DNA from: Thermotoga sp. | GTDB taxonomy: Bacteria > Thermotogota > Thermotogae > Mesoaciditogales > Mesoaciditogaceae | Direction: 5' to 3' | DNA length: 64,000 bases | Assembly (NCBI GenBank): GCA_020722015.1 | Contig: DYLQ01000005.1 | Span: forward strand, 8,453-72,452 | Shown: positions 5,314 to 40,621 of the stretch, piece after piece | Numbering within the stretch: the first letter of the stretch is position 1 | How the letters are laid out: every line of letters starts with the position of its first letter | Program-made: the position numbers and the translations under genes | Notes under the pieces: model-generated | What the model saw: only the letters and a program-made list of their open reading frames with translations | What the model was told of the DNA's origin: nothing | Databases searched by the model: none

Positions 5314-5464
5314 TATACTTAATCAAGTTTAAAAATGAAGTCATTTGACTTCAGCAAATGCCTTTCGGTGTCTGGTCCTCGCTTCGCTGCGGAGGCCACC
5401 TGCAAGGCAATTTGCTCTCCGTCAAATTTAATTATATTTCGATTCTGAAAAAGATTTAGTATAC
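5314..5464. repeat. ~150-bp TATA-bounded palindromic interspersed element, copy A (putative MITE)
   Basis: Reverse complement of copies at 35518 and 40471 with 2 substitutions in the ~94-bp core; ends TATACTTAA... and ...TTTAGTATA. Confidence 0.9.
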
Positions 5465-5509
5465 TTAATCAACTTTAAAAGTTAAGCCAATTCTGTTATA
5501 ATCTGCAAG

Positions 5510-6619
5510 ATGGATAAAAATTTTGATCTTATGGCTTTAACAGCCTTTGGCATTGAAAGTGTCACGAAGATGGAGTTGCAAAAACTTGGGTATGAAACGA
5601 AAGTTGAGGATGGTCGTGTAAACTTTCGCGGCAATTTCGAAGACATAGTACGTTCCAATTTATGGCTAAGGACGGCAAATCGCGTTATGATAAAAGTTGG
5701 AAGTTTTGATGCACGGGATTTCAATACGCTCTTTGATAAGACGTTTGATATCGATTGGGATTATTTTCTTACAAATGACGCAAAATTTCCCATCGAAGTT
5801 TCGTCCGTCAAATCAACGCTTTCGAGTGAACCTGCTTGTCAGTCGATAATAAAGAAAGCCATTGTTGAAAAACTTAAAAAGCGCTATCATGTTGAAATGT
5901 TTCCTGAAGACGGTGCGCTTTACAGGATAAAAGTTTATATACTCAAAGATCACGTTACAATTGGAATCGACACAACCGGTGATAGTTTAAACAGAAGAGG
6001 CTATAGAACTGAAATATCAGAGGCTCCTTTGAAAGAAACGATGGCAGCCGCAATCGTCATGCTGAGTAAATGGAATGGCGATTTGCCGCTTTGGGATGGC
6101 TTCTGTGGTTCTGGTACAATTCCCATCGAAGCCATGATGATGGCCAAAAGAATCGCTCCAGGGATTTTGCGTAAGTTTGCCTATGAGAAATGGAGAAATT
6201 TTCCAAACGACATCATTGCTGATGAAAGGAAAGAGGCAAAAAAGGCCATATCGGAGTCTAATGTAAAAATAATCGGATCAGATGTGGATAACAGAATTAT
6301 AAATTCTGCTGTAAGAAATGCTGGAAGAATGGGCCTTGAAAGGTATATAGATTTTCGCGTTTCGAGCGTTGAAAAATTCACACCCGAAGGTTCAAGAGGA
6401 TTTTTCATATCTAATCTTCCGTACGGCAAAAGAATGGAAATTGATGCGAACATTTACGAGGTGCTAAAAGATAAATTTGATCATCTCAATGGATGGAAAT
6501 TTTTCTTTCTGACGGCAGATAAAGATTTCGAGAGATCCTTTTTGAGAGCTGATGGTAACAGAAAGATGTTCAACGGAAGAATAGAAGTCAGACTTTACAA
6601 ATACGAAAGGAGAGGTTAA
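5510..6619 (+). CDS. THUMP-domain class I SAM-dependent RNA methyltransferase (RlmL/YpsC-like)
   Basis: NLWLRTANRV, DTTGDSLNRRGYR, APLKETMAAA, DGFCGSGTIPIEA, SNLPYG. Confidence 0.9.
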   Translation: MDKNFDLMALTAFGIESVTKMELQKLGYETKVEDGRVNFRGNFEDIVRSNLWLRTANRVMIKVGSFDARDFNTLFDKTFDIDWDYFLTNDAKFPIEVSSVKSTLSSEPACQSIIKKAIVEKLKKRYHVEMFPEDGALYRIKVYILKDHVTIGIDTTGDSLNRRGYRTEISEAPLKETMAAAIVMLSKWNGDLPLWDGFCGSGTIPIEAMMMAKRIAPGILRKFAYEKWRNFPNDIIADERKEAKKAISESNVKIIGSDVDNRIINSAVRNAGRMGLERYIDFRVSSVEKFTPEGSRGFFISNLPYGKRMEIDANIYEVLKDKFDHLNGWKFFFLTADKDFERSFLRADGNRKMFNGRIEVRLYKYERRG

Positions 6620-6621
6620 AA

Positions 6622-7542
6622 TTGATCTTCACACTGACTATGAATCCAAGTCTTGATAGGTATCTTTACATCGATGAGTTAATTCCGGATGATTCCATAA
6701 GGGTAAAAGAGACACAGGAATACGCCGCCGGAAAAGGTATAGATGTTTCACGCGTTATAAAAGAAATAGGCGGAACATCGATAGCAATATGTCCTTTGGG
6801 AGGATCGAATGGCGAAAGAATGGAATTCATGTTGGATAACGAAAGGGTACTTTATGCCGCGGTAAGGATAAAACATGAAACAAGAATGAACATCATAGTC
6901 CAAAGTCGCAAAAACCAATACAGACTTAATTTGCCGGGTAAAGCTTTGAGTGAAAGCGAATATGAAATGGTAATAGACATGCTCAAAACGATTTTAAGAA
7001 AGGGAGATACGCTTGTCGCATCTGGAAGCTTGCCACCAGGATTACGTCCGTCTGTTTACGGTGATATTGTCAAAATCGCAAAGTCAAAAGACGTAAGAGT
7101 TTACGTGGATACAGACGGAGATAACCTAAAAGAAGCCGTCAAGGAAGGACCATTTGGAATAAAGCCAAACATTCATGAATTATCGCGCCTTATCGGTAAA
7201 GAAATCAAAATAGAAGGAGTCGAAAAGGCCGCTGAGGATGTCGCAAAAAAATATGGAATTTCAAACGTGCTTGTTACCCTTGGCGGAGACGGCTCCATAT
7301 CGTTGATAGAAGGCCATATTTACAGCATGAAACCGATAAAGGTCAAAGTCAAGGGAGGCGTCGGCGCGGGTGATTCATTTTTGGCGGGTTTTGTATCTAA
7401 AAGAGATGAATCAATAGAAGATGCACTTAGATTGGCAAGCGCATGCGGAGCGGCTGCGGTTATGAATGAGGGAACAACGCTTTCAAAGAAGGCCGATGTT
7501 GATAGGTTAATAAAAGAAGTGGAGCTCGTCAAGATAAAATAA
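6622..7542 (+). CDS. 1-phosphofructokinase family hexose kinase (PfkB)
   Basis: TLTMNPSLD, AGKGIDVSR, SGSLPPG, IKPNIHEL, VGAGDSFLAG. Confidence 0.9.
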   Translation: MIFTLTMNPSLDRYLYIDELIPDDSIRVKETQEYAAGKGIDVSRVIKEIGGTSIAICPLGGSNGERMEFMLDNERVLYAAVRIKHETRMNIIVQSRKNQYRLNLPGKALSESEYEMVIDMLKTILRKGDTLVASGSLPPGLRPSVYGDIVKIAKSKDVRVYVDTDGDNLKEAVKEGPFGIKPNIHELSRLIGKEIKIEGVEKAAEDVAKKYGISNVLVTLGGDGSISLIEGHIYSMKPIKVKVKGGVGAGDSFLAGFVSKRDESIEDALRLASACGAAAVMNEGTTLSKKADVDRLIKEVELVKIK

Positions 7543-8633
7543 TGTTAAAACAAATTGCGTCAAAAATATCTCATGAATGGCTTTTTTTGATCTCGGTTTT
7601 GTTTGCGATTCTCACGATAATCGTCGTGAGAAAGAATCCTATCACTTTTATAGGATCAGATCAGATTAGAGTACTCTGGATATTGTTCATCATGATGATC
7701 ATAAATTCAGGGTTGAAAGAGAAAGGTGTTCTCGATTACTGGGGCATTCATTTGATATCAAGATCAAAAGATATACGTATGGTTTCCGTTTTACTTTTGA
7801 TTTTGACCGCTGTACTTGCTCCGCTTGTGACAAATGATGTAACCTTACTCGTCATAGTGCCTCTTACGATAAGCATCGCAAAAAGATCTGATTTCGATCC
7901 CCTTTGGCTTGTAATTCTTGAATCAGTCGTAGCAAATGGAATGAGTTCTTTCACGCCTTTTGGGAACCCTCAAAATATTTACATTTACACCCATTACCAA
8001 TCCCCAACGATAGAGTTCATGCTTTACGTTGCATTATTTTCAATTCTTTCGCTTTTGATTGCCTTGATCACCATTTTTTTCGTAAAAAATAAACCTGTAA
8101 GTCGCGTTTCGAGGATTGTAACGCTTAAAAAACAATGGTGGATGTACTTGTTGCTACTTTTTCTTATGATAGCGTCTATACTGAGATTTGGAGATATCTT
8201 CGTGATAGGAGGTTTTATACTCGCATACGTTATCTTATCAGATAGAAGATTACTTTTCGACGTTGACTATTTTCTACTTGGGACATTTATCGCGTTTTTT
8301 GTTTTATCCGGAGAAATATCCTCTATGTCATGGCTTCAGAATTTACCTGCTTTTTTGAACAACGGAAAAAATGTGTTTTTAACATCGGCATTGCTTTCTC
8401 AAATTATAAGCAACGTACCATCGGCCATCGTTGTTTCAGCTTTTACGAGTCTTTGGAAACCGCTGCTTTTAGGGGTAAGCGTCGGAGGATTTGGAACTTT
8501 GGTCGGATCTTTGGCAAACATAATAGCCTTTTCTATATACAAAAAAGATTTCAAATCCAATTACCTTAAGTATTTTCATCTTTATTCGATACCTTTGTTT
8601 TTGGGAATGCTTGCTTTGTTTTCCTTTGTATGA
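7542..8633 (+). CDS. SLC13/ArsB/CitM-like anion permease (YbiR-like)
   Basis: Polytopic; VTNDVTL, TPFGNPQN, SQIISNVPSA, GTLVGSLAN. Confidence 0.85.
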   Translation: MLKQIASKISHEWLFLISVLFAILTIIVVRKNPITFIGSDQIRVLWILFIMMIINSGLKEKGVLDYWGIHLISRSKDIRMVSVLLLILTAVLAPLVTNDVTLLVIVPLTISIAKRSDFDPLWLVILESVVANGMSSFTPFGNPQNIYIYTHYQSPTIEFMLYVALFSILSLLIALITIFFVKNKPVSRVSRIVTLKKQWWMYLLLLFLMIASILRFGDIFVIGGFILAYVILSDRRLLFDVDYFLLGTFIAFFVLSGEISSMSWLQNLPAFLNNGKNVFLTSALLSQIISNVPSAIVVSAFTSLWKPLLLGVSVGGFGTLVGSLANIIAFSIYKKDFKSNYLKYFHLYSIPLFLGMLALFSFV

Positions 8634-8634
8634 C

Positions 8635-8660
8635 AAAAAGCCGGGTCTTTCGACCCGGTC
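8635..8660. terminator. terminator between convergent genes
   Basis: AAAAAG-CCGGGTC-tttc-GACCCGG; U tract on the minus strand. Confidence 0.75.
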
Positions 8661-8671
8661 ATTCGTTTCTT

Positions 8672-10528
8672 TTATTGGGCGGTGTTGACTGCTTTCACAA
8701 ATCCCTGTTCACCGTAAACATTTTGAATTCCACCGAGCGTGTGCGTGTATGCAAATTCAACCTGATCCGGTCTGTAAGCTTCCATAAGATTAGAAGAGTA
8801 TATCACGACGTATGGTACATCATCTTCTAACATTTGCTCAAGTTTAAACGCATATTCACGCGCTTTTGTCATATCGGTCTGGGCTATGAATTCATGAGCC
8901 AATTCTTCGAATGTCGGATCAACATATCCTGGAGAGTTAAATCCGCCGGGAACATTCTGAGACCTGGCGAAAAATTCTTGAATGTAACTCGGGTACACGG
9001 TAATTCCCCATCCGAGCATGTAAATGTCAAAGTTGAAATTTTCATTAAATACCGCGTTGACTATGTTGTTGAAGCTTGTAAGATTGGCATAAAGCGGTAT
9101 TCCTATGTCATTTGCCCACTTCTCAATCCACAACGCTATCGTTGCCCTTATCGGATCGTATCCTGCGGATGGTGCGAGCATCGTTATCTGTTTTATGAGT
9201 TTTCCGTTTGGACCCATCAATCCTTCTCCGCGTTGGACGAGCTGACCGTTCTTCATCTTTGGAGGTATAAGCCATGTAAATCCTGCCTTTTTAAGTTCGT
9301 TTATCGCAGCTTCATATCTTTGAGCGGTGTCCATACCTTCTCCATAATATTTGAGATTTGGGTCGTACCAGAATTTGTTGCCTGGAGGCACCAAAGATGC
9401 GAGAGGTACTATCGATCCAGGAAGAATTTTGTCTGCGAGCATATGTCTGTCTATCAAATAAGCTATGGCAACTCTGAATCCTTTGATGTTCATCGGGTAT
9501 TTTCTCATGTTGAAGGCTATGTAATCAAAGCCGAGATCCTGATTTTGAACGATTTTAACTTTTGGATTTGTTTGAAGTTCCTGAACGAATCCCTTTTCAA
9601 GTCCGTTAGGACTTAACATGTAACCTATCGTACCCTTCATAAGGGCGGCAACAGCCGCTGTCTGATTCTGATAGATGTCGTAGACTATCGAATCGACGTA
9701 AGGGCCTGTTACGAAATCGTGAAGCACAGTGCCCTCTGGAGTGCCGTAGTAGGTTGCATTTATACCAAGTGCCGGATCAACGTACTGAACCGCACCGTTT
9801 GCGTATTCTATTTCGTGTTCGCCTTTAAAAGAGTAATTTTGAATGCCGGTATCTTTGATAAATGCGCCATGTTGCCATTGAGAAACGGTGATCGGGCCTA
9901 TCGACGGCTCGTCGTAGAGATTCGTATCGTAATTCATCATGTACTGTGACGGATTAGATGTTTTAATCGCGGCTTCGTAGACAGGTTTCCAAAAATTCGC
10001 GTTGACGATTGGAGCCATAAGTGTGTCATATATGAATTCTCCGCTTGGTTGTTTAACGTAAAGATCGACTGTATAATCGTTAACCTTCACGGCTTTGAAA
10101 AATTCGTAAGGTGTTGCCGGATAATCTCCTCCCCAGTTTCCGGGAAGTTGAAGTTCATAAGGCACGTTGTAGGAAAAAACGACATCGTTTGCCGTAAACG
10201 GGTCCCCATTTGACCATTTGACACCCTTAAGAAGTTTAACCGTCGTGACGTAAGCGCTCGTTCCATCAAAGGTCGTCTTTTCAAAAGGAGACCACATTCC
10301 GTCTGCAAGACTGGGAACCAACTGGTTAGTAACATCTGACAAACCGTAGAGTGATCCATACTTGTCGATGGCTGGATAGAAATTCCACGAAGTTGCATTT
10401 GGTCCTAACATAGACCAGATGTTAAGAGATGTGATGTCGGAATACATTCCGAAATTCACAACTCCGCCGGCGAGTGCGGCACCAATGAACATCGTGCCAA
10501 TTAATAATAATACAAGTACTGTTTTCAT
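8672..10528 (-). CDS. ABC transporter substrate-binding protein, family 5 (OppA/DppA-like)
   Basis: Signal peptide; GVKWSNGDPFTANDVVFSY, FRVAIAYLIDR, QMLEDDVPYV; GGAGG SD. Confidence 0.88.
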   Translation of the reverse strand: MKTVLVLLLIGTMFIGAALAGGVVNFGMYSDITSLNIWSMLGPNATSWNFYPAIDKYGSLYGLSDVTNQLVPSLADGMWSPFEKTTFDGTSAYVTTVKLLKGVKWSNGDPFTANDVVFSYNVPYELQLPGNWGGDYPATPYEFFKAVKVNDYTVDLYVKQPSGEFIYDTLMAPIVNANFWKPVYEAAIKTSNPSQYMMNYDTNLYDEPSIGPITVSQWQHGAFIKDTGIQNYSFKGEHEIEYANGAVQYVDPALGINATYYGTPEGTVLHDFVTGPYVDSIVYDIYQNQTAAVAALMKGTIGYMLSPNGLEKGFVQELQTNPKVKIVQNQDLGFDYIAFNMRKYPMNIKGFRVAIAYLIDRHMLADKILPGSIVPLASLVPPGNKFWYDPNLKYYGEGMDTAQRYEAAINELKKAGFTWLIPPKMKNGQLVQRGEGLMGPNGKLIKQITMLAPSAGYDPIRATIALWIEKWANDIGIPLYANLTSFNNIVNAVFNENFNFDIYMLGWGITVYPSYIQEFFARSQNVPGGFNSPGYVDPTFEELAHEFIAQTDMTKAREYAFKLEQMLEDDVPYVVIYSSNLMEAYRPDQVEFAYTHTLGGIQNVYGEQGFVKAVNTAQ

Positions 10529-10676
10529 TGCCGAAACCTCCCTTCAAAATGTAAAGATGCGGTAAAAACCGCCATAATAAACGAAATAAACATAAAAAGA
10601 AACAACGGTGTTGTTTACTTTTATTGACACAATTGTTTAATGTTTATTGCTTAAAAGTACCTACAACTTAATTAAT

Positions 10677-15300: not shown

Positions 15301-15327
15301 AAAACCTCCATGAAATATTTAAAAAAT

Positions 15328-15658
15328 GAGGAAATGGAACTGTAAGCCGGATTCTGTCTTGGATGATCATCTATCTTGGAAATGTGTTTCCACATTCCTC
15401 TAGCGACCTACCAGAGGGATCGGTGGGCCACCTTATAACCCCTCGACTTGGTCTTGCTTCGGGTGGAGGTTACCAGGCCGACCAGTCACCAGGTCGGCGG
15501 TGAGCTCTTACCTCGCCTTTCCATCCTTGCCCTTTCGGGCGGTTTTCGTTTCTATGGCCCTTTTCAAGGATCACTCCTTCCGGGTGTTACCCGGCACCCT
15601 GCCCTTGGAAGTCCGGACTTTCCTCGGCTTTCACCGCGATCATCCGTTCCATTTCCTC
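15328..15658 (-). ncRNA. rnpB: RNase P RNA (bacterial A-type)
   Basis: Minus strand has GAGGAAAGTCCGG near the 5' end and ACAGAATCCGGCTTAC near the 3' end; complementary termini GAGGAAATGGAAC / GTTCCATTTCCTC form P1. Confidence 0.96.
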
Positions 15659-15661
15659 TTT

Positions 15662-16495: not shown

Positions 16496-16572
16496 TGGCG
16501 CGCCTGACAGGAGTTGAACCCGCAACATTCGGATCCGAAGTCCGACGCTCTATCCAATTGAGCTACAGGCGC
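16496..16572 (-). tRNA. tRNA-Arg(TCG)
   Basis: Cloverleaf GCGCCTG/CAGGCGC, anticodon arm TCGGA-cttcgga-TCCGA, encoded CCA. Confidence 0.95.
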
Positions 16573-16577
16573 AACTT

Positions 16578-16654
16578 TGGGGTGGCTGGTGGGGCTTGAA
16601 CCCACAACATTCGGATCCACAGTCCGACACTCTACCAATTGAGCTACAACCACC
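16578..16654 (-). tRNA. tRNA-His(GTG)
   Basis: Encoded G-1, C73, anticodon arm TCGGA-ctgtgga-TCCGA, CCA. Confidence 0.95.
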
Positions 16655-16660
16655 ACGCTA

Positions 16661-16737
<77 letters not shown>

Positions 16738-16748: not shown

Positions 16749-16777
16749 ATTATATCACATCGTTTTTTTGATTACAA
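16749..16777 (-). promoter_or_regulatory. promoter of the tRNA cluster
   Basis: Minus strand TTGTAA-N17-TATAAT with TGn extension, just upstream of tRNA-Arg(TCT). Confidence 0.75.
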
Positions 16778-17698
16778 GTTCAGCCTGAACTTTTCCGTTA
16801 AATCTTTGGATATAACCTCATCGATTTCGAACATCGTGAGTTTTGCGTTTACTTCTTCGACGGGAACGGATAACAACATTGAAATTTCTTCTGATGTCTT
16901 TGGTCCATCTTTCAAAATGTCAAGTATCGGATCGGAAAGAGATTTTTGGGCTTTACCCGTTCTTACATAACCAAATTCTTCAAGTATATCCTCCGACGAG
17001 GATACACACTTTGCTCCATGCTTTATCAGATTATTTGTTCCTTCGCTTGTTACGGAAAAAATCGATCCCGGAACGGCAAATACTTCTCTTCCCTCTTCAA
17101 GGGCAAAGCGTGCCGTTATTAGAGAACCGCTCTTGTAAGATGCCTCAACGACGACAACACCCATTGAAAGGCCGGCTATAATTCTGTTCCTTTTTGGGAA
17201 AGTCCATTTATTCGGTTGAGTCCCAAGTGGAAATTCACTTACCAGGCATCCCTTCTCCATGACCTGCTGAAAAAGCGCCCTCTTTGATCTCGGATAAACC
17301 ACATCTATCCCTGTTCCCAAAACACCTACCGTAAAACCGTTTTTAACAGCCTCTTCATGCGCTGCGGAATCTATTCCATGAGCCAAACCACTTACTATAA
17401 CAACACCTGCCTTAGAAAGTTCAGTGGATATCTTCCCAGCAACTGCTCTTCCGTAAGAGGTTGCCATTCTTGATCCGACTATGGCTATTGAAAAATTGTT
17501 CATCACACTGATTTCATTCCCCATGACGTAAAGCAACAAGGGCGGATCACTTATGTGCGAAAGTGCGATTGGATATCTTTCATCCCCGATTGGAATGAGA
17601 TTAACTTTAAGCGCTTCACATCTTCGTATTTCTTCCGTTACCGCTTTTGAATACGGATCTTTGTTCAAGAGTTTAGAAACAGCCTCTTCTATTCTCAT
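16772..17698 (-). CDS. dprA: DNA-processing protein DprA
   Basis: YPIALSHISDPP, AIVGSR, VSGLAHGIDSAAH, FPKRNRIIAGLS, SGSLITA; ATG 17698 chosen from the SD. Confidence 0.93.
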   Translation of the reverse strand: MRIEEAVSKLLNKDPYSKAVTEEIRRCEALKVNLIPIGDERYPIALSHISDPPLLLYVMGNEISVMNNFSIAIVGSRMATSYGRAVAGKISTELSKAGVVIVSGLAHGIDSAAHEEAVKNGFTVGVLGTGIDVVYPRSKRALFQQVMEKGCLVSEFPLGTQPNKWTFPKRNRIIAGLSMGVVVVEASYKSGSLITARFALEEGREVFAVPGSIFSVTSEGTNNLIKHGAKCVSSSEDILEEFGYVRTGKAQKSLSDPILDILKDGPKTSEEISMLLSVPVEEVNAKLTMFEIDEVISKDLTEKFRLNL

Positions 17699-17768
17699 GA
17701 TATCCCCCGTGATTTTCCTCTGTATCGATGATATCACAACAAAGGTTTAAATCAAGCATGAGATGGCT

Positions 17769-17917
17769 TATACTAAATCTTTTTTAAAAGCCGGCATAAT
17801 AAATTCAAATTTGGCAGGTTGCAAGTGGCAGGTGGCTTGTGGTCTTTCATTCTCGACTTGAGGGAACCCTATCTGATAAGGTCAAATGACTTCGTTTTTT
17901 AAAGTTGGTTTAGTATA
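17769..17917. repeat. ~150-bp TATA-bounded element, copy D (conserved arms, diverged core)
   Basis: TATACTAAATCTTTTTTAAAAG left arm and GTCAAATGACTTC...TTTTAAAGTTGGTTTAGTATA right arm match copy B; interior only partly alignable. Confidence 0.8.
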
Positions 17918-17956
17918 TGATATAATTTTGTCAGATTTCGATGCGTGGTGATCTGA

Positions 17957-26902: not shown

Positions 26903-27621
26903 GAACTGTAAATTTGAAGAACAAAGGAAAAGTATTCACCATCATAAACAGCACTGGCAAAAATACCCCTGTTGTCGTCATGTTTCACGGCTTTACCGGA
27001 AATCACATAGAAGCGCATTTCATCTTTGCACGGCTTTCAAAGGCTCTTGAGAAAGTTGGCATATCGTCTGTGAGATTCGACTTCAGAGGCTCTGGAAATA
27101 GTGATTGGCCTTTTGAGAAAATGACGCTTTCTTCCGAAATTTCTGATGCACTCAAAGTCATAGAATACACGAGAAGGAACTTCGACAACAAATTAGGAGT
27201 GCTTGGTCTTTCTATGGGTGGAACCATTGCCCTTTTGACGGCTAACCAGATCGATCCCGACGCTCTTTGTCTGTGGGCACCTGCTTCCAAAAACAAAGAG
27301 ATTTTTTCAAAGGGTATTCCATCTGTCCCAAAAGATCTCCGTTTCTTTGATGTGGGAGGAATAAGGGTATCAAAAGAATTCACGAAGGAAGTGCTGACAT
27401 TTGATGCCTTCGGCGAGGCAAAAAAATACAAAAAGCCGACCCTTATAATTCATGGTACATCTGATCAATCCGTTCCATTTGAGCATAGCCAAGATCTCGT
27501 TAAAGAATTCAAAAAGGGAACGCTTCTTCCGATTGAAGGATCGGATCACGTTTTCAGTTCTTACGATTGGTCAGAACTTGTTATATCTGAAACCGTTAAG
27601 TTTTTTGAAAGTAATCTTTAA
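26899..27621 (+). CDS. alpha/beta hydrolase (esterase-like)
   Basis: HGFTG, RFDFRGSG, GLSMGG nucleophile, HGTSD, DH catalytic His. Confidence 0.88.
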   Translation: MRTVNLKNKGKVFTIINSTGKNTPVVVMFHGFTGNHIEAHFIFARLSKALEKVGISSVRFDFRGSGNSDWPFEKMTLSSEISDALKVIEYTRRNFDNKLGVLGLSMGGTIALLTANQIDPDALCLWAPASKNKEIFSKGIPSVPKDLRFFDVGGIRVSKEFTKEVLTFDAFGEAKKYKKPTLIIHGTSDQSVPFEHSQDLVKEFKKGTLLPIEGSDHVFSSYDWSELVISETVKFFESNL

Positions 27622-27624
27622 ATT

Positions 27625-27653
27625 AAAAAAGGCGGAAGATTTTCCGCCTTTTT
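27625..27653. terminator. bidirectional terminator
   Basis: AAAAAA-GGCGGAA-gatt-TTCCGCC-TTTTT between convergent genes. Confidence 0.9.
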
Positions 27654-27659
27654 GATATT

Positions 27660-29825
27660 TCAGACACTTTTGAAATGCATCAGTACACTTTTAAAGTCCC
27701 CAAGTGTGTGTGGGATCGTAATTCCTTCGAAGGTAAGTTCGTCTCCGCCGTAAATTTCATCTGTGCCTTCCAATTTGTAGTTTTTTTCCGTTGATATGCC
27801 TTTGAGTCTTAACCTTGTGCTTTTTGAATTCGGTGTTCCGAGTATTTTGAAGTGATAAAGCAGAAATTCATTCTTTTCTTCATCTATTATCATCCATGCG
27901 GCTTCATTTCCGTCGAAAGGACTTAATAGTCTGTAAAAATTTCCGAATTGGATCAATTTTCTTAATTTCTTGTATTCTGAAATATATGCTTTAATTTTTG
28001 ACTTTTCATCGCTTGAAAGTTTTGTCAGATCAAGTTCAAAACCCATATTTGCACTCATGACAACATGTGCTCTGGCATCTATCGATGTCATTCTCCCTAC
28101 TTGGTGATTCGGAATATCGGATATATGACTTCCCATCATGATTTGCGGATAAACGTAACTTGTCCCGTACTGAATTTTAAGTCTTTCCATGGCATCGGTA
28201 TCGTCACTTGTCCATGTCTGCGGCATGTAATAGAACATGCCGGGATCGAATCTTCCCCCACCTCCTGCGCAACTTTCAAACAGTACATCCGGAAAAGACG
28301 ATGTTATCACATCTATGACATTGTAAAGACCCAAAATATATCTGTGTGCCGTCTCCCTTTGCCTATCGTCAGGCAACAAATCGGATCCTATTTCAGTCAT
28401 ATTCCTGTTCATGTCCCATTTCACATAACTTATGTTTGCGCTTCTCAAAAGTTTCGATATCGTCTCTACCATGTAATCACGCACATCTTGTCTTGAGAAA
28501 TCCAAAACAAGTTGGTTTCTGCTTAAATTTCTTTCTCTTCCTTTTACATGAATACACCAATCCGGATGCAATCTGTAAAGATCGCTATTCGGCGATACCA
28601 TTTCCGGTTCAATCCACAAACCGAATTGAAGTCCGATATCGTTTATCTTTTTGGCAAGGCCATTGAGCCCTTCCGGTAATTTTCTTCTGTCGACAAACCA
28701 ATCGCCGAGAGAAGAATTATCGGCATCTCTCCTTCCGAACCATCCGTCATCAAGAACGAAAAGTTCTATGCCGACTGCCTTTGCTGCTTTTGCGATGTCA
28801 AGTAATTTTTCCTCGTTGAAATTGAAATAAGTTGCTTCCCAATTGTTCACCAATATCGGTCTTACCATATCCCTGTACTTGCCACGTGCAAGTCTTGATC
28901 TGTAGAGTTTATGGTATGTTTGAGACATTCCGTTGAAACCTTCAGATGAATAGGTTATGACAGTTTCAGGAGTCTGAAATGTTTCAAGTGGTTCTAAAAG
29001 CCATGAAAAGTCAAATGGATTTATTCCAATAGACACTCTCGCGGTTTCATACTGACCAACTTCAACCTGAGCAAGAAAATTCCCACTGTAAACAAGGCTG
29101 AATCCGTAAACGTCACCTTCTGATTCATTTGTGTCCTTTTTGGCCAGCGCTATAAATGGATTTTGTTGATGACTGCTTGCACCTCTTCGGCTTTCGATGG
29201 ATTGTATTCCAGACACAAGGTGTCTTTTTACGATATGTCTTTCACGTGCCCATGCACCGGAAAGTTGAATCATGACGAAATCATCGTCTTCAAAATCGAC
29301 ACTCGCACTTAATGCCCTTAGTATTCTAATTTTTTGGGGGCTTTCGTTTTTGAATTTTACACTTCTTGTAATAGCTTGGAATTTTTCAAATACGGTATAG
29401 GTTAAAGTTACACCTAACTTTCCAACTACGTCATTCAAATAAATTTCAAGAGTTTGGGCCTCACCGTCACTTTCGACGTAAGTTGCCGGCATTCCGTCTA
29501 ATTTTGGTTTTCCGTTGTAAATTTTGTGGCCTGTGTACTTCAGATCCGAAACTGTAGAACCATCTTCGAATTGCACCTGATAAGCAGGCGCTCTGAAATC
29601 GGTTGCACCGTAAGCGGGATATTCTTGAGGAAGAAGTTCAAGAGAAAGATTCGGACCATAGGCCATTTTGTATAAATCGGTGATATGATCGATCTTCAAT
29701 CCTTTTATCTTTCTACCCCAATAGGCATGGCATAACCTGTCATTTTTATCTATGTACATCGTGTACTGCATATCTCTTGAAAAAAGGTTAAAGGTCTTTG
29801 TGGATTCATCAAAATATATCGGCAT
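27660..29825 (-). CDS. alpha-galactosidase, GH36
   Basis: NNWEATYFNF, LFVLDDGWFG, FGLWIEPEMV, YVKWDMNR, ESCAGGGGRFD, WTSDDTD; GAGGAG SD before ATG 29825. Confidence 0.95.
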   Translation of the reverse strand: MPIYFDESTKTFNLFSRDMQYTMYIDKNDRLCHAYWGRKIKGLKIDHITDLYKMAYGPNLSLELLPQEYPAYGATDFRAPAYQVQFEDGSTVSDLKYTGHKIYNGKPKLDGMPATYVESDGEAQTLEIYLNDVVGKLGVTLTYTVFEKFQAITRSVKFKNESPQKIRILRALSASVDFEDDDFVMIQLSGAWARERHIVKRHLVSGIQSIESRRGASSHQQNPFIALAKKDTNESEGDVYGFSLVYSGNFLAQVEVGQYETARVSIGINPFDFSWLLEPLETFQTPETVITYSSEGFNGMSQTYHKLYRSRLARGKYRDMVRPILVNNWEATYFNFNEEKLLDIAKAAKAVGIELFVLDDGWFGRRDADNSSLGDWFVDRRKLPEGLNGLAKKINDIGLQFGLWIEPEMVSPNSDLYRLHPDWCIHVKGRERNLSRNQLVLDFSRQDVRDYMVETISKLLRSANISYVKWDMNRNMTEIGSDLLPDDRQRETAHRYILGLYNVIDVITSSFPDVLFESCAGGGGRFDPGMFYYMPQTWTSDDTDAMERLKIQYGTSYVYPQIMMGSHISDIPNHQVGRMTSIDARAHVVMSANMGFELDLTKLSSDEKSKIKAYISEYKKLRKLIQFGNFYRLLSPFDGNEAAWMIIDEEKNEFLLYHFKILGTPNSKSTRLRLKGISTEKNYKLEGTDEIYGGDELTFEGITIPHTLGDFKSVLMHFKSV

Positions 29826-34970: not shown

Positions 34971-35432
34971 ATGAGAATTTTTCTTGCTGTTTTGCTGATG
35001 GTTCTTGTAGCAGGCATTATGAGTTTTGCGTTGATGATCGGATTTACGGATGGGGTAGTTTCTTATGCAATTTCTGTTGGAATGGAATTAACTCCTTCTA
35101 CTTTTGCTTACGCCGGCTTTTCTTTTCCTCTTGGAGCGATGATCGGTGGTGGAATGAAACTCGGAGATCTTTACAACTTCGATTTCGGTAAAGCCACAAA
35201 TGGTCAGGAAATAGGCACTTTGAACATCGGATATGGTGCCATTGCTGATGCTGAACTTGACGCTTTTTACGGTTTTTCCCCTGCCATTTTTGTTGGCCCG
35301 GGCATAATCTTAAGCGCTAATTTGCCTGTTGTAAGCAGTAGAATGCTTTCCTACACGGCAATAGGATTAGGATGGCCTTTGGGACACTTACCGAGGTTCA
35401 GCTGGACAACAGGTTGGTTCTACGTTTTTTAA
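34971..35432 (+). CDS. hypothetical exported protein, possible small beta-barrel
   Basis: Signal peptide, Gly/aromatic-rich, ends GWFYVF; own promoter and terminator. Confidence 0.65.
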   Translation: MRIFLAVLLMVLVAGIMSFALMIGFTDGVVSYAISVGMELTPSTFAYAGFSFPLGAMIGGGMKLGDLYNFDFGKATNGQEIGTLNIGYGAIADAELDAFYGFSPAIFVGPGIILSANLPVVSSRMLSYTAIGLGWPLGHLPRFSWTTGWFYVF

Positions 35433-35447
35433 ATTGATTCTGATCAT

Positions 35448-35476
35448 AAAAGTCCTCTCAAAAGAGAGGACTTTTT
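35448..35476 (+). terminator. intrinsic terminator
   Basis: AAAAGTCCTCT...AGAGGACTTTT followed by T. Confidence 0.85.
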
Positions 35477-35517
35477 ATATGCCGTATCTTTTGATTCGGA
35501 ATTTGAGTATAATTGAG

Positions 35518-35671
35518 TATATTCTAAATCTTTTTTAAAGCCAACATGTAAATTCAAATTTGACGGAGAGCAAATTGCCTTGCAGGTGGCCTCCGCAGCG
35601 AAGCGAGGACCAGACACCGAAAGGTAATTGCTGAAGTCAAATGACTTCACTTTTAAAGTTGGTTCAGTATA
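35518..35671. repeat. ~150-bp TATA-bounded element, copy B
   Basis: 35556-35649 identical to 40506-40599. Confidence 0.92.
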
Positions 35672-35694
35672 TAATCGATCGAAGAGGTGATCGG

Positions 35695-36333
35695 ATGAAA
35701 AAAGTGATGTTGCTTTTTATTTTGATCTTTTCAATTCTCTCGATCTCAATTTTCGCAAGCGGTCAAATCGTCGTTGATAAAGTTTTGACAGGTAAGACCA
35801 TAGTTTTGGATCCCGGAAATGGGGGTACGGATCCCGGTGCGATAGGTCCGACGGGCTTGCTTGAGAAAGGCATAAATTTAAAGGTTGCCCTTGATCTTGC
35901 TCAGTTGTTGAAAATTCAAGGGGCAAATGTCATTCTGACACGTGCTACGGATACTTATGTGCCTCTCAAACAGAGAGTAGATATAGCCAACCAGGCAAGT
36001 GCAGATCTTTTCATATCGATCGCTCACAATTCCATTCAAGGTGCTCCGAGCGTCGACAGACCTCAGATTTTCTACTGGAGCACATCCAACTCTTCCAAAC
36101 TCGCTGCCGACATATTCCTCAAAGCATTTGAAAGATTTTTTGGCACAAATGGTGATCTGATAAGAGAAGAATTCACAATTCTAAGATATGCCACGGTTCC
36201 GGCTATTCTTGTCGAACCGTGTTTTATGTCCAATCCGTCAAGAGAGATATGGTTAAAGAGCGCCAAAAATCTCTGGCGCGAGGCCGTGATTTACGATATG
36301 GCGGTGCTTGAATATTTCGAGAGTCAATCATAA
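35695..36333 (+). CDS. N-acetylmuramoyl-L-alanine amidase (Amidase_3) homolog with altered Zn ligands
   Basis: Signal peptide; IVLDPGNGG, EKGINL, LTRATD, SIAHNS, ILVEPCFMSN; AGAGGTGA SD before ATG 35695. Confidence 0.82.
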   Translation: MKKVMLLFILIFSILSISIFASGQIVVDKVLTGKTIVLDPGNGGTDPGAIGPTGLLEKGINLKVALDLAQLLKIQGANVILTRATDTYVPLKQRVDIANQASADLFISIAHNSIQGAPSVDRPQIFYWSTSNSSKLAADIFLKAFERFFGTNGDLIREEFTILRYATVPAILVEPCFMSNPSREIWLKSAKNLWREAVIYDMAVLEYFESQS

Positions 36334-36906
36334 TCCTATGGTGAATTTTCTTGTGCCGGGCTTGACTAACGGAACTTTATCTTTGCATAAGGGACATTCT
36401 TCTGCTTTGTAATTGTTCAAAGGTAATTCGATGAGCGTTTTTATGGGAAATCCGTTTATTTCGTTTAAATTTCCCCTGTTTGCGATTGAAGCGGTACAAA
36501 CTGTCGGAGCACCGTATTCATGAAGCAGTTCCATCACCTCTTTCGTTGACTTTCCGGTTGTTATCACATCTTCGACTATCGCGATTCTTTTAAATTGTGA
36601 CGGATCAAAATCTCTTCTGAATCTCATCGTACCGTCGTCGGTCCTTTCGGCAAAAAGAAATGGAACGTTGAGATGTTTCGATACTTCGTATCCTATTATG
36701 ATTCCTCCTATTGCCGGCGAAACTACACAATCGGGATTGTAAGCAGAAATTTTAACAGAAATTCCATAACCCAATTCTTCAGCGTACCAAGGAAATTTCA
36801 ATGCTTTTGCACATTGTATGTATGAGTCCGAATGCAAGCCTGATGATAACAAAAAGTGCCCATGGATCAAAGCATCCGTGTCTTCAAGAATTTTTTTGTA
36901 GTCCAT
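36328..36906 (-). CDS. pyrE: orotate phosphoribosyltransferase
   Basis: GHFLLSSGLHSDSYIQC, IAIVEDVITTGKS. Confidence 0.95.
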   Translation of the reverse strand: MDYKKILEDTDALIHGHFLLSSGLHSDSYIQCAKALKFPWYAEELGYGISVKISAYNPDCVVSPAIGGIIIGYEVSKHLNVPFLFAERTDDGTMRFRRDFDPSQFKRIAIVEDVITTGKSTKEVMELLHEYGAPTVCTASIANRGNLNEINGFPIKTLIELPLNNYKAEECPLCKDKVPLVKPGTRKFTIGL

Positions 36907-36914
36907 ATTTCACC

Positions 36915-37679
36915 TCACAAAGCCAACATTTTGGAATATTCATACGCAGATTTCGACGGATCTTCCGAAAAAATTACGGCTCTTGAAATGTTCACGAGAA
37001 TTCTGTCATGTGCGATTGAATTCATGACGATTTCAACATCTCCGCCTTGTGTACCTATTCCCGGAATCAGGATAAGGCTCTCTTTTGATATTTGAGATAT
37101 CTCAGAAAGTTTTTCGGCGACAGTTGCACCAACGACAAGGCCGCAATTTCCATACTTTTTATTTTTATCATCGACAAATTCAGCGACTTTAGCGTAAAGC
37201 GGAGGTGTTCCGTGATATTCGAAATCAACGGCACTTTTATTGGATGAAAGACATACGACAAAAACATACCTGTCTTCATAGGCAAGAAATGGATCTATAG
37301 CATCCTCTCCCATGTATGGAGAAAGCGTTATGGCGTCGAAGTTGAAAAAGTCAAATGCTGCTTTCGCGTAAGCTCCGGCCGTTGATTCTATATCTCCGCG
37401 TTTAGCATCGTATATGACCGGAATGTCACCTATAAGATCGCGCGTCTTCAAAAGTGTATTCATTCCTTCAGAACCGAGAGCTTCGTAAAATGCGGAGTTG
37501 ATCTTATACGCACACGTCATATCTTTTGTTTTTTCGATGATCGATCTGTTGAACTCGTATACGCCTTGAGCATCTTTTGAAAATCCTTTCGGCAATTTTT
37601 CAACATCCGAATCAAGACCTATGGTTAAAACATTTCCAACCAGACGCATTCTGTTTCTTATCTTTTCTGTGAATTTCAT
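36915..37679 (-). CDS. pyrF: orotidine-5'-phosphate decarboxylase
   Basis: IGLD, YKINSAFYE, DAKRGDIEST, LIPGIGTQGG, NISRAV. Confidence 0.95.
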   Translation of the reverse strand: MKFTEKIRNRMRLVGNVLTIGLDSDVEKLPKGFSKDAQGVYEFNRSIIEKTKDMTCAYKINSAFYEALGSEGMNTLLKTRDLIGDIPVIYDAKRGDIESTAGAYAKAAFDFFNFDAITLSPYMGEDAIDPFLAYEDRYVFVVCLSSNKSAVDFEYHGTPPLYAKVAEFVDDKNKKYGNCGLVVGATVAEKLSEISQISKESLILIPGIGTQGGDVEIVMNSIAHDRILVNISRAVIFSEDPSKSAYEYSKMLAL

Positions 37680-38578
37680 CTGAAGCCCCCTCTGTGTGAT
37701 GCGCCTATGATCTCTTTAATATCGAGTTTAAGTGCTTCAAGAATTTTTTTGAGATCTTCAATTATCTTTTGAATGGATTTCGGATCTATCATGGCTTGTG
37801 TTCCAATCTCGATAAGCGATGCACCGGCAACTATGTATTCTACGACATCCTCAGCTTTTTCGACCCCGCCGAGCCCTATTATCGTAAGCTCAGGAAATGC
37901 TTGCTTTACCTGATAAACTTTCCATAAAGCGATTGGCATGAAGGCGGGACCGCTCAATCCACCCCTTACATTTTTCAAAAACGGCTTGCCTGTTTTCACG
38001 TTGAACCTTGCTCCTTGGATTGAATTTCCGATGTTCACGATCTTTATACCGGACTCCATCGCAATTTGAGATTGCCATACGGTATCGAGATCGAGCGATA
38101 ACTTTGCTATCAAAGGTTTTTTTGTCGTCATTTTGCAAGCCGACAATATCTCTTTTGTCAATTTAGAATCGGAGGCTATGACACTTCCGCCAACATTCGG
38201 GCATGAAAGATTTACCTCTATCATATCCGCAAATTTCTCGACTTTTTTTGTTACATTTGCAAAATCTTCAGGACTTTCTCCTCCGACTGAAATTATTCTG
38301 ACGCATGTTTGGGGAAGAGATGGTGCGATCTTTTGGATGAAAAAATCAACTCCCGGGTTTTGAAGACCTATGGAATTCAGAAGACCGTTTTGAAGGTAAA
38401 CAAGCCGAGGAGGTATATTGCCCGTTATCGGATAAGGTGTCACCGTTTTTGAAGTGAATCCGCCTATGGTATCGGAAGACGTGTATTTGAAAAATTCATC
38501 TCCGAATCCCAAAGGGCCGGAGGCCGTTACAATCGGATTTTTAAAATGAATTCCTTCTATTTCTATCGATAAGTCCAT
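37676..38578 (-). CDS. pyrD: dihydroorotate dehydrogenase 1B catalytic subunit
   Basis: NSIGLQNPG, EVNLSCPN, GGLSGPAF. Confidence 0.95.
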   Translation of the reverse strand: MDLSIEIEGIHFKNPIVTASGPLGFGDEFFKYTSSDTIGGFTSKTVTPYPITGNIPPRLVYLQNGLLNSIGLQNPGVDFFIQKIAPSLPQTCVRIISVGGESPEDFANVTKKVEKFADMIEVNLSCPNVGGSVIASDSKLTKEILSACKMTTKKPLIAKLSLDLDTVWQSQIAMESGIKIVNIGNSIQGARFNVKTGKPFLKNVRGGLSGPAFMPIALWKVYQVKQAFPELTIIGLGGVEKAEDVVEYIVAGASLIEIGTQAMIDPKSIQKIIEDLKKILEALKLDIKEIIGASHRGGFR

Positions 38579-39225
38579 TCGAGATCAACCTCCGAAACGT
38601 TAAAAGTCGGTCCGTCTTTGCAAACGAATTTAACCCCGTCTTTTGTCATAACGGCGCATCCTTCGCACATGCCACGAGCACATGCCATCTTCTCTTCCAT
38701 CACGGCATAAATCGTACTTTCCGGGAAAGCACCTTTGATATCTTTTATCATTTCGTTAGGGCCACAGGCTAAGATATTTTCCAAAGGTGATAATTTTGCC
38801 ACATCCGTCGGGGTCGTAGGATCTACAACGCATATGCAATGATCCGGTATGTCCACAAAATCAAAAAGTTCGTCATCGGGCATACCTACTATCATCTCTT
38901 CAAAATCATATGTGGAAGCATAAAAATGAATGGGGGCATATCCTACTCCTCCTGCCATTAAAAGTACATCGTCTATTTTTGGAATTGCGTTTCCGAACGG
39001 TCCATCAACGATCAAATCTCCGTTTAGAAATTTTTCTGTTTCTCCTTTGGATTTGATGAGAAATTTTAAATTGCCGTCTTTTAGATCGTAGACGCTGAAA
39101 GGTCTTGGAATATAAGGACCTGCCTGGGTTTTTATCGTGAAAAACTGACCCGGCATTGCCTTACCACTGTATGGCAATTCAAGCAAGATGTAAGACCCTT
39201 TTTTCGAGACTTTCAACATTTCCAT
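38563..39225 (-). CDS. pyrK: dihydroorotate dehydrogenase electron-transfer subunit
   Basis: PGQF, RPFSV, GPFGN, AGGVG, MACARGMCEGC...VCKDGP 2Fe-2S motif. Confidence 0.92.
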   Translation of the reverse strand: MEMLKVSKKGSYILLELPYSGKAMPGQFFTIKTQAGPYIPRPFSVYDLKDGNLKFLIKSKGETEKFLNGDLIVDGPFGNAIPKIDDVLLMAGGVGYAPIHFYASTYDFEEMIVGMPDDELFDFVDIPDHCICVVDPTTPTDVAKLSPLENILACGPNEMIKDIKGAFPESTIYAVMEEKMACARGMCEGCAVMTKDGVKFVCKDGPTFNVSEVDLEWTYR

Positions 39226-40444
39226 ACACCTGCCTTCCGTTAACGTACGTCGCTATAACCTTGCCGTTCAAATTCTTGTTTAAAAATGGTGTGTTTGAAG
39301 ATTTCGATAGAATCGTATTTCTCGAGACATTCCACTTTTGATTTGGATCGAAGATGACGAAATTTGCCGGCAATCCTTTTTCTATTCGTCCTTCGTTCAA
39401 CTTGTATAATTTTGCCGGATCTGATGTAACCTTTTTTAAAAGTAACTCGGTTTTCACGCCTCTTTGAGAGACGATGAGGATCTCGTTCAGAAGTGTTTCG
39501 AATCCAATGATTCCGAATGGAGCAGATTGAAATTCCACTTCTTTTTCTTCAGACGTGTAAGGTGCATGATCCGTTATTATCGCATCTATTGTTCCATCTT
39601 CAAGACCTTCATAAAGTGCGATCTGATCTTCTGCCGTCGGGAAAGGAGGATTTATCTTTTTCGAGGTATCGTAGTCGTTAAGATCCTTGTCTGTAAAGAC
39701 AAGATGATGAATGCACACATCACATGTGATCTTTATCCCGTCTTTTTTTGCCTGTCTTATGAGTTTTACGGATCTCGCCGTTGATACATGGGCTATATGC
39801 ACATGAGCCTTCGTCAGGTAAGACAGCTCTATTTCTCTCGATACCGCTATCGATTCTGCGACATCCGGCATGGCATATATTCCGTAAAGTGTCGAATACC
39901 ATCCTTCTCTCATATGGCCTGTTCCGAGATCTTTATCCTGACAGTGAGAAATTATCGGAAGATCAAGCTCATACGCGTATTCCATTGCATGACGGGCAAG
40001 AAAAGCGTCCGTCAGGAAATTCCCATCGTCTGAAAATCCAACAACTCCTGCACGTGCCATTCTGTGCATTTCTGTAAGTTCTTTCCCTTCTCTTCCTTTC
40101 GTTATTGCACCGACAATTTTAACGTTTGCCTTTGCGTATTTTGCTTTTTCTTTCACGTATAGAACCATTGTTTCGTTGTCTATTGCCGGATTCGTGTTCG
40201 GCATGGCAAAAACAGTCGTTATACCGCCGTGAACCGCAGATTGTGTGCCGGAGAGGAGATCTTCCCTTTTCGTTTGACCCGGATCTCTCAGGTGTGCGTG
40301 TGTGTCTATAAGACCGGGCAATACCCAAAGACCGTCGAGGTTTAATTTTCCCCCATCTTCTTGTGCTTCAAAACGTTCGTTAAAGGCAAAAGATCCGTTG
40401 TAAAATCTTTCTCCATCGAAAATATTTGCGTTATCAAAGATCAT
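39179..40444 (-). CDS. pyrC: dihydroorotase (type I)
   Basis: PGLIDTHAHLRDPG, MPNTNP, FSDDG, HIAHVST, TDHAP, SKSSNTPF. Confidence 0.95.
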   Translation of the reverse strand: MIFDNANIFDGERFYNGSFAFNERFEAQEDGGKLNLDGLWVLPGLIDTHAHLRDPGQTKREDLLSGTQSAVHGGITTVFAMPNTNPAIDNETMVLYVKEKAKYAKANVKIVGAITKGREGKELTEMHRMARAGVVGFSDDGNFLTDAFLARHAMEYAYELDLPIISHCQDKDLGTGHMREGWYSTLYGIYAMPDVAESIAVSREIELSYLTKAHVHIAHVSTARSVKLIRQAKKDGIKITCDVCIHHLVFTDKDLNDYDTSKKINPPFPTAEDQIALYEGLEDGTIDAIITDHAPYTSEEKEVEFQSAPFGIIGFETLLNEILIVSQRGVKTELLLKKVTSDPAKLYKLNEGRIEKGLPANFVIFDPNQKWNVSRNTILSKSSNTPFLNKNLNGKVIATYVNGRQVYGNVESLEKRVLHLA

Positions 40445-40470
40445 TCATAAACACCTCCGAGCATTTGATT

Positions 40471-40621
40471 TATACTAAACACTTTTCAAAATTGAAATAT
40501 AATTTAAATTTGACGGAGAGCAAATTGCCTTGCAGGTGGCCTCCGCAGCGAAGCGAGGACCAGACACCGAAAGGTAATTGCTGAAGTCAAATGACTTCAT
40601 TTTTAAAGTTGATTAGGTATA
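40471..40621. repeat. ~150-bp TATA-bounded element, copy C, overlapping the last codons of pyrB
   Basis: TATACTAAAC...GATTAGGTATA; core identical to copy B; arms closest to copy A. Confidence 0.92.

Follow-up and report, generated by a model that had tools for sequence, protein, structure and literature searches.

The 64,000-nucleotide stretch analysed here (contig DYLQ01000005.1 of assembly GCA_020722015.1, Thermotoga sp., family Mesoaciditogaceae; henceforth the window) carries four copies, A to D, of a repeat of about 150 bp that very probably represent a family of non-autonomous DNA transposons, that is, miniature transposable elements with inverted repeats (MITEs), of an uncultured lineage near Athalassotoga and Mesoaciditoga. 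The family is previously undescribed and belongs to an ordinary kind of element; its central hairpin is unusually conserved and likewise undescribed. The Thermotogota origin of the DNA, assumed in an original prediction made from the letters alone, is borne out by the best named protein relatives: those of the window's PyrC and RimO come from Athalassotoga saccharophila (75% and 62% identity), 'Athalassotoga sp.' and metagenome-assembled genomes (MAGs) of Mesoaciditoga.

The existence of four copies at the places proposed is confirmed by a profile built from them, which recovers the four with E-values of 5e-50, 5e-48, 1e-47 and 4e-33 and yields no other comparable match in the 64 kb apart from a solo right-end fragment beside copy A. 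This fragment of 22-30 bp, reaching at most over 5460-5491, scores E = 0.04 with the whole-element profile and matches at 21 of 21-23 bases in BLAST; the remainder of the older element to which it belonged is gone. The predicted limits of copies A, B and D hold, and only the start of copy C has to be moved, by homology, from 35518 to 35520 (TATTCT...). In a MAFFT alignment the core and the right arm are nearly the same in copy A (reverse strand) and in copies C and D, with the cores 95-98% identical. Copy B has both ends and the subterminal parts in common with them but a different core, and copy C is a mosaic with a B-like left arm and a D-like core and right arm. The cores are richer in G+C (54-55%) than the window as a whole (39.6%). 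All copies have TATA at both ends and, as predicted, imperfect terminal inverted repeats, here delimited at 21-26 bp (TA-TACTNAAYC..CTTTAAA); a profile of the ends locates them as plus/minus pairs 150-320 bp apart. Members of the family have no coding capacity, the open reading frames (ORFs) across them being only spurious reading frames.

The mobility of the elements is documented by orthologous sites that are empty in relatives. The site of copy D is empty in the loci L014, L015-L020 and L021, whose PyrC proteins are 89%, 87% and 75% identical to that of the window. The junction there reads GCTTTGT-TA-AATCAAATGCT, as against GCTTTGT-TA-(TACCTAATC...GTTTAGTA)-TA-AATCAAATGCT in the window, from which it follows that the insert consists of 147 bp plus a second TA. 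The site of copy C is empty in L015 (GCGG-TA-TAATCGATC), where the amidase gene and its upstream neighbour have no element between them, and that of copy B in L143, L144 and L145 (RimO 81-82% identical), which have AATGGAAT-TA-TGATATAAT where the window has GATGGCT-TA-(copy B)-TA-TGATATAAT. The reciprocal situation also occurs: between pyrF and pyrE a family member is inserted in L015, the window having a gap of 8 nt there, and at CAGA-TA-...-TA-CTTAT two members are present in L145 (13739-14056) and none in the window (27621-27660) or in L143. The empty orthologous sites have a single TA; a TA stands on either side of copies B, C and D and of the L145 elements. The two L145 elements stand in tandem, and the 20-nt spacer between them, GAATATGTGCATTCATGAAA, resembles an inverted copy of the right flank, CTTATAAAGTGCATC. 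About 30 copies were inspected, and TA flanks every one of them without any broader target consensus. The intergenic region upstream of dprA and the region upstream of the amidase gene have each been targeted repeatedly in different lineages.

When GTDB was scanned with the right-end pattern at one genome per species, a single genome matched, the MAG CAJXLN01 ('uncultured Thermotogae'). It has 11 exact right-end matches in all; ten complete copies and one truncated at a contig end are present, each bounded by TATA and all in unrelated flanks. Eight of the copies are 100% identical, which, given their unrelated surroundings, shows recent activity, in keeping with the prediction; the density extrapolated there, above one copy in 20 kb, gains no support from a count of 11 in a whole MAG. 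The CAJXLN01 elements are 90-92% identical to those of the window, whereas the only gene region common to the window and the fetched CAJXLN01 loci, that of an amidohydrolase, is 65.6% identical at the DNA level, a difference that implies either horizontal spread or strong constraint. Nearer relatives include a JGI metagenome contig (L012), which is 99.1% identical to the window over 11.7 kb and has copies C and D, and a Logan contig (L013), which is 100% identical and ends 55 nt from pyrC, inside copy D.

The empty sites (at three of the four copies), the reciprocal presence and absence of members in L015 and L145 and the identical copies together indicate that the family is mobile, duplicates TA and has been active recently, and these sequence comparisons make it highly probable that the elements are MITEs inserting at TA with target duplication, as originally proposed. 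One could instead regard the copies as fixed regulatory motifs and not as mobile DNA, considering that they adjoin gene starts and that their ends align with -10 boxes. The probability of this is practically nil: it is already refuted by the three sites that are empty in relatives and have a single TA there, the flanks of all copies are unrelated, and copy D interrupts an overlapping gene pair. Positions of the copies and associated features are listed in table 1.

Table 1. Repeat copies, their parts and neighbouring features (positions refer to the window unless a locus is named).
Feature	Position	Strand	Remarks
Copy A	5314-5464	-	151 bp including TA at each end; element proper 5316-5462; profile E = 4.8e-48
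Genes flanking copy A	3924-5003; 5510-6619	+; +	GFO/IDH/MocA oxidoreductase; RlmL-like THUMP methyltransferase
Core hairpin, copy A	5344-5425	-	apex CTCCGCAGCGAAGCGAGGACCAG; covariance model 89 bits, E = 2e-21
Side hairpin, copy A	5331-5353	-	counterpart of the side hairpin of copy D
Solo terminal-repeat fragment	5460-5482	+	TATACTTAATCAACTTTAAAAG; TATA common with the end of copy A
Promoter-like hybrid at the solo end	5474-5502		TTTAAA of solo end 17 nt 5' of TG-TATAAT, ahead of the gene at 5510
Copy B	17769-17917	+	149 bp; best-paired terminal repeats; different core, without the apex motif
Setting of copy B	16772-17737; from 17957	-; +	dprA; DUF4416/rimO genes; TA of copy B directly 5' of TGATATAAT
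Promoter-like hybrid at copy B	17898-17926	+	TTTAAA in right repeat of B, 17-nt spacer, TG-TATAAT in flank; 30 nt 5' of the DUF4416 gene; consensus match only
Copy C	35520-35671	+	152 bp; inserted in the TA of a TATAAT box
Setting of copy C	35695-36333	+	Amidase_3 gene; on the other side, terminator of a small membrane-protein gene
Core hairpin, copy C	35560-35641	+	covariance model 86.9 bits
Copy D	40471-40621	+	151 bp, between pyrB and pyrC; TA duplicated at 40471-40472 and 40620-40621
Core hairpin, copy D	40510-40591	+	covariance model 86.9 bits; fold computed
Side hairpin, copy D	40582-40604	+	TGAAGTCA-AA-TGACTTCA followed by TTTTT; terminator-like on the consensus strand of the element
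pyrB frame	40587-41558	-	last 35 nt inside copy D; end changed from ...ALLNQMLGGVYE-stop to ...ALLYLINFKNEVI-stop
RNase P RNA (class A)	15327-15655	-	282 bits
tRNA cluster Arg-His-Arg	16496-16737	-	copy B about 1 kb away
tRNA cluster Thr-Tyr-Trp	41812-42233	+	copy D about 1.2 kb away
Long members, examples	L014:5027-5560; L084:3392-3692; L085:637-957; L086:4501-4750; L133:1431-1691		two or three cores

The part of the element that stands out is the core of copies A, C and D, a hairpin of about 83 nt with the apex CTCCGCAGC-N2-5-GCGAGGACCAG and covarying stems. A metagenome scan with this apex pattern returned at least 120 stretches, and the folded ones among the matches listed have one common architecture. 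From the base towards the middle it comprises a closing stem, an internal loop with GGAG opposite GAA, a stem of 12-13 bp and a GA-rich internal loop (GA/GA, GCA/GA or GGA/GGA). A helix of 4-5 bp follows (GGTG/CACC, GATG/CATC, GAAAT/ATTTC, GGAAG/CTTCC or GCGAG/CTCGC), then an asymmetric loop with a conserved ACCAG(A) on its 3' side, a CCUC/GAGG stem and a small apical hairpin. Copy D folds better than each of 200 shuffled versions on both strands (z = -3.9), and copy B has z = -2.3. With RNAalifold, the covariance check suggested in the original prediction, 25 diverse cores give 22 pairs, 12 of them with both sides changed. The covariance model built from this alignment finds only copies A, C and D in the window, copy B having E > 10, so the predicted 85-bp fold-back with GCGAAGC and GGTG/CACC applies to the former three and not to the latter, whose core differs. 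Across the loci the model has at least 216 matches, distributed over 86 of them; the exact apex pattern misses about 90 of these matches. Related elements and internal arrays with the core number more than 200.

The statistics of pairing were taken from the best 150 model matches, 147 of which are distinct. In these 147 cores, whose rows are related rather than independent and whose alignment was fitted to the covariance model, 96.8% of cells pair, compared with 87.4 ± 0.4% in shuffles and 31-45% with slid partners, and 339 cells are changed on both sides compared with 110 in shuffles. Covariation extends to the two apical pairs, which are GC...GC in about 100 rows, AC...GT in 29 and mixed in 3; the loops they enclose are GNA (GAA 44, GCA 25), ANA (18) or GNYA tetraloops (about 40) and never GNRA. 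The invariance of the apex stems in part from the design of the search pattern, and 51 rows from outside the pattern retain the apex with only one or two changes. Importance of d(GCGAAGC) as such, which the prediction had described as an unusually stable mini-hairpin, is not supported by these data, the loop being variable, although the two closing pairs covary. The ACC-GAAA-GGT loop does not survive either, for the comparison shows CACC pairing with GGTG and AAGG with CCTT; we accordingly rejected an ACC-GAAA-GGT hairpin in favour of GGTG/CACC, and a hexaloop version of the apex in favour of the covarying two-pair mini-hairpin. Other details of the fold proved correct: the two substitutions of copy A (GGCATTTGC versus GGTAATTGC in C and D), read from the aligned sequences, preserve stem pairing, and the side hairpin, with five T residues after it, is present and competes with the base of the core hairpin.

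Mismatches are distributed unevenly between the strands. Non-Watson-Crick pairs on the consensus strand comprise 204 G.T and 49 A.C, and the six mismatch states present in at least 12 rows are all G.T, which points to folding of one particular strand. Judging by these patterns, the core is probably under selection to fold on one strand. Several points weigh against this interpretation. The G.T excess comes down to some six independent fixed states, corresponding roughly to p = 0.02-0.03, and covariation without any hairpin function could arise from concerted evolution of two arms binding the same protein, from template-switch correction of quasi-palindromes or from inheritance within a few subfamilies. 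A good match to an internal promoter (TAAACA-16-TATAAT, 7 nt before the hairpin) is seen in copy D and is absent from copy A and the other subfamilies, and members show no orientation bias with respect to flanking co-directional genes (17 same, 11 opposite), which argues against an RNA role dependent on host transcripts. Intact ends are also found in members that lack the apex, namely copy B and several relatives, and an empty site is known for B; the apex is therefore not obviously needed for insertion.

The same observations bear on the idea that the element serves chiefly to carry a functional structured RNA, either a small RNA or a cis module such as a terminator, stabiliser or processing site, which would spread by virtue of its place between transposon ends and would itself be the object of selection. 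The conserved apex, the covarying stems and the tolerance of G.U-type mismatches on one strand only would suit such a role, as would the promoter-like site before the hairpin of copy D with the hairpin and T5 after it, the T-run that the right end always places just past the fold-back, and the presence of the same apex in a tRNA operon of GC-rich bacteria, where its position is conserved (see below). We nevertheless consider it unlikely, given that the promoter-like site is missing from copy A and other subfamilies, that orientation is unbiased relative to neighbouring genes, that the motif in the tRNA operon is antisense to the tRNAs, that the tetraloops are all GNYA and never GNRA, the type favoured in RNA, that Rfam has no match, and that apex-less members such as copy B have inserted as well. 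An internal small-RNA promoter was not adopted, the match being good in copy D only.

We looked for the enzyme that would mobilise the family. In the window, no transposase occurs among the ORFs of at least 180 aa, in agreement with the prediction: those scanned with Pfam are all housekeeping genes, and the pyr genes, rpoB, rpoC, nusG and rplA were identified by other means. There is none beside about 60 element ends either (about 1 Mb of loci), and no autonomous insertion sequence with matching ends in the window, in 148 loci (about 1 Mb) or in IMG/VR. Clustering of the ORFs of at least 180 aa from 141 loci for a recurrent partner protein gave housekeeping families only, and the 1.8 kb inward of 26 unpaired ends contains only long or truncated MITE variants beside ordinary genes. 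Regular expressions run in six frames over about 1 Mb of carrier-genome loci detected neither the IS630-like signature SPxLNPxE nor an ORF with an HUH...Y motif. Their sole match, and the one DDE insertion sequence that any carrier genome yielded, is an IS4/IS5-like element of CAJXLN01 (L006:3617-4791), which encodes a 324-aa transposase with a Y-R-E-K signature and lies 400 bp from a MITE copy. It was rejected as a partner, since its 16-bp perfect terminal repeats, GTAGACTGTCCAAAAA, are unrelated to the MITE ends and it is flanked by a 9-bp duplication, GTTATTGAT. An IS110-family (DEDD) transposase gene at a contig end of a close relative (L015:7042-7375) was likewise rejected, its upstream non-coding region being unrelated to the MITE.

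The nature of the enzyme has hence to be judged from the 2-bp TA duplication. Strict duplication of TA is a hallmark of the Tc1/mariner/IS630 family, and for this reason a mobilising enzyme of the IS630/Tc1-mariner type is slightly favoured over all else, although the link to such a transposase made in the original prediction gained no partner from the window, the loci or IMG/VR. Apart from the lack of an autonomous element with matching ends, this assignment is weakened by the fact that 2-bp duplications can also be generated by other DDE families, with 2-4 bp being known for the IS427 group of IS5 and 2-3 bp for IS30 (ISfinder family tables). A partner from one of these two groups would fit with the failure to find SPxLNPxE in any frame. 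It seems improbable to us, considering that the roughly 30 inspected copies, all flanked by TA without a wider consensus, display the pattern of IS630/Tc1-mariner elements, and that the ends and duplication of the L006 insertion sequence offer no support.

A further alternative is a single-strand (HUH/Y1) element of the IS200/IS605 palindrome-associated transposable element (PATE) kind or of the kind of repetitive extragenic palindromes (REPs)/REPINs mobilised by RAYT, which would be recognised through its hairpins on one strand and for which TA would be a cleavage or target motif instead of a duplication. The strand-biased mismatches, the subterminal hairpin 22 nt from the right end, GNA and GNNA loops, which are typical of stable DNA mini-hairpins, and the presence of the apex without TATA ends in GC-rich bacteria are compatible with it, and some cores start with GGCGTAG, similar to a GTAG tag. 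Against it, the elements have clear terminal inverted repeats and duplicate 2 bp of target, neither of which occurs in IS200/IS605 elements or REPs, and their target is only TA, not a motif of 4-5 nt. Conservation is lacking in the left-end hairpin, the tag reads GGAG or GAAG in most cases, and the roughly 1 Mb of loci searched contains no ORF with an HUH...Y motif. We regard this alternative as very remote.

The insertions have left traces in host genes. In every relative examined the genes pyrB and pyrC share an ATGA overlap, whereas in the window copy D separates them and has replaced the last nine residues of PyrB, NQMLGGVYE, by YLINFKNEVI; the ribosome-binding site of pyrC is intact. The orientation of copy D places its hairpin and T5 off the pyr mRNA strand. 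Copies B and C are inserted at the TA of, or beside, -10 boxes, and in copy C a TTCACT lies 18 nt 5' of TATAAT. Such promoter features at element ends, including the hybrids of table 1, are consensus matches in AT-rich DNA, not functional evidence. To the left of copy C (35491-35521) the -10-box region is present as a near-tandem duplication, GAGTATAAT-TGAGTATA, which is single in L015 and could be the footprint of an earlier insertion and excision or a product of replication slippage.

Across the loci, ends of this kind bound elements of 113 to about 530 bp, and arms of different subfamilies have sometimes recombined. The long members (250-530 bp) have two or three cores in direct orientation, separated by runs of the 7-mers GATTAGA/GGGATTAG, TATAGC-like and GTGACGCGTAACG-like repeats. 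Most come from two assemblies, JABEBX01 and JABEBW01, of which one is the MAG GCA_013285365.1; its RimO is 83% identical to that of the window, and it therefore represents a close relative of the organism. Arrays of up to about 0.5-1 kb, some of them bounded by the terminal repeats of the family, occur in close relatives of the window's organism (L014:5027-5750; L030, the whole contig; L035:5016-5592); in them core hairpins alternate with the telomere-like 7-mers GATTAGA/GGGATTAG and with TATAGC-type and GTGACGCGTAACG-type repeats. In the same MAG GCA_013285365.1, recA (L148:3707-4515) is called as two ORFs of 49 and 213 aa, owing either to a frameshift or to an assembly error.

Most apex matches in GC-rich DNA, among those listed, are due to chance and fall in coding regions without a hairpin, but a small number are long hairpins whose inner architecture is that of the core. 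The GC-rich contig L023 (2190-2350 and 4816-4967; the same in L039) has the 23-nt apex as inverted pairs about 60-70 nt apart. In the dnaE2 gene of L023/L039, encoding an error-prone polymerase, the apex and a degenerate inverted copy form an in-frame insert of about 55 residues, and a second inverted pair lies between an upstream imuB-like ORF and dnaE2. In three other GC-rich contigs (L121:1203-1287, L131:558-642, L070:2692-2776), a long apex hairpin sits between tRNA-Val(CAC) and tRNA-Gly(CCC) of an orthologous Gly-Val-Gly-Gly tRNA cluster; its stem differs by compensatory changes and extends into the 3' end of tRNA-Val, and the motif lies antisense to the tRNAs. The outer stems are unrelated between the GC-rich sites. 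A tentative and rather doubtful extension of these observations would be that the core, over some 45-85 nt, is an independent structured module absent from Rfam, folding on one strand and recognised by a protein, which was captured and multiplied by MITEs in Thermotogota and exists, or moves, on its own in GC-rich bacteria. Its parts would be the apical (G/A)C-GNA/GNYA-G(C/T) mini-hairpin, the CCUC/GAGG stem, conserved unpaired CGCA and ACCAG(A), the covarying helix of 4-5 bp and the GA-rich loop.

Each element consists of about 147 bp plus the duplicated TA and inserts at TA within AT-rich DNA between genes, frequently inside or beside -10 boxes and gene ends; it would be moved in trans by a DDE transposase recognising the terminal repeats, most likely of the Tc1/mariner/IS630 type and encoded outside the window. 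The central hairpin of copies A, C and D would be a passenger or a cis module dispensable for end recognition, given that copy B and other members have the same ends without it. Selection at the level of the element may keep it folded on the consensus strand, most plausibly as a protein-bound hairpin in single-stranded DNA or RNA. Effects on the host seen in the window are the uncoupling of pyrB and pyrC, the changed C-terminus of PyrB and the replacement, by element ends, of the sequence 5' of the -10 boxes of two genes. A well-documented and recently active MITE family is hereby added to the Mesoaciditogaceae-like Thermotogota, a phylum from which the literature searched describes almost none. 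Several contigs of these uncultured genomes end within elements; the elements break the assemblies and could serve as strain markers. The invariant asymmetric apex, with its covariation, its one-strand tolerance of mismatches and its occurrence in unrelated GC-rich bacteria, is the more interesting lead. If a protein recognised it as a DNA or RNA signal, the apex would count as a new structured motif, through which the acquisition and amplification of passenger modules by MITEs could be studied; if the module were independent, it would be a mobile or functional hairpin crossing phyla.

Comparisons with databases and the literature returned no known counterpart, consistent with the novelty assumed in the original prediction. 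A scan of the whole window with Rfam release 15 gives no match at gathering score to any copy, and permissive scans of copy D, an array contig and the tRNA-linked hairpin stay at chance level (E >= 1). BLAST of copy D against plasmid and phage collections found nothing, and the end pattern has 0 matches in IMG/VR; the single IMG/VR match to the core pattern was dismissed as chance, lying in a GC-rich coding region without a hairpin. Literature searches on Thermotogae MITEs, the apex 11-mer and Mesoaciditoga/Athalassotoga repeats led only to unrelated primer matches and to a survey of REPs, which reports CGTC-tagged repeats in Thermotogae (PMC3733652).

Among known systems, the family exhibits the features by which MITEs are recognised: small non-coding size (149-154 bp, with long variants of 250-530 bp), terminal inverted repeats, TA duplication evident from filled and empty sites, many copies in unrelated genomic contexts and presence/absence polymorphism. 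The strict TA target and the 2-bp TA duplication of all inspected copies are those of IS630/Tc1-mariner-dependent MITEs. RUP of Streptococcus pneumoniae and the eukaryotic Stowaway elements are similarly non-autonomous, duplicate TA and have ends mimicking those of a DDE transposon acting in trans; their partner family is known (IS630/Tc1-mariner), whereas for the present family membership of the IS630-dependent class is only inferred. REPIN/REP-RAYT and the GTAG/CGTC-tagged palindromes (PMC3733652) are comparable as long imperfect hairpins dispersed in intergenic DNA. REPs, however, have a conserved 5' tag and no terminal inverted repeats or target duplication, while in the present family the foot varies between GGAG, GAAG and GTAG and TA is duplicated; membership of the REP/REPIN (RAYT) group was rejected on these grounds and on the lack of an HUH-Y ORF in the loci, and derivation from IS200/IS605-type PATEs on account of the terminal repeats, the TA duplication, the flank with TA only and the non-conserved left-end hairpin. 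Rickettsia palindromic elements (RPEs) provide a parallel for palindromes tolerated in frame, as at the changed end of PyrB and in the insert of about 55 residues in dnaE2, but have other sequences and hosts and no TA-bounded terminal repeats. A broader likeness exists to the Correia/NEMIS elements of Neisseria, with their size of about 100-155 bp, TATA boundaries, TA duplication, terminal inverted repeats and fold-back of the whole element. Correia/NEMIS elements insert near genes, their ends can supply promoter parts, and they are co-transcribed as hairpins. Their end, TATAG(C/T)GGATTAA..., appears unlike the present ends, the phylum differs, and the present family has in addition an apex of invariant, asymmetric sequence across subfamilies and internal arrays of modules. 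In the latter respect it resembles BOX of S. pneumoniae, which is modular and has an internal module in variable tandem number, like the two or three cores and 7-mer arrays of L014:5027-5560 and L085:637-957, although BOX has no TA duplication or comparable terminal repeats and its sequences are unrelated.

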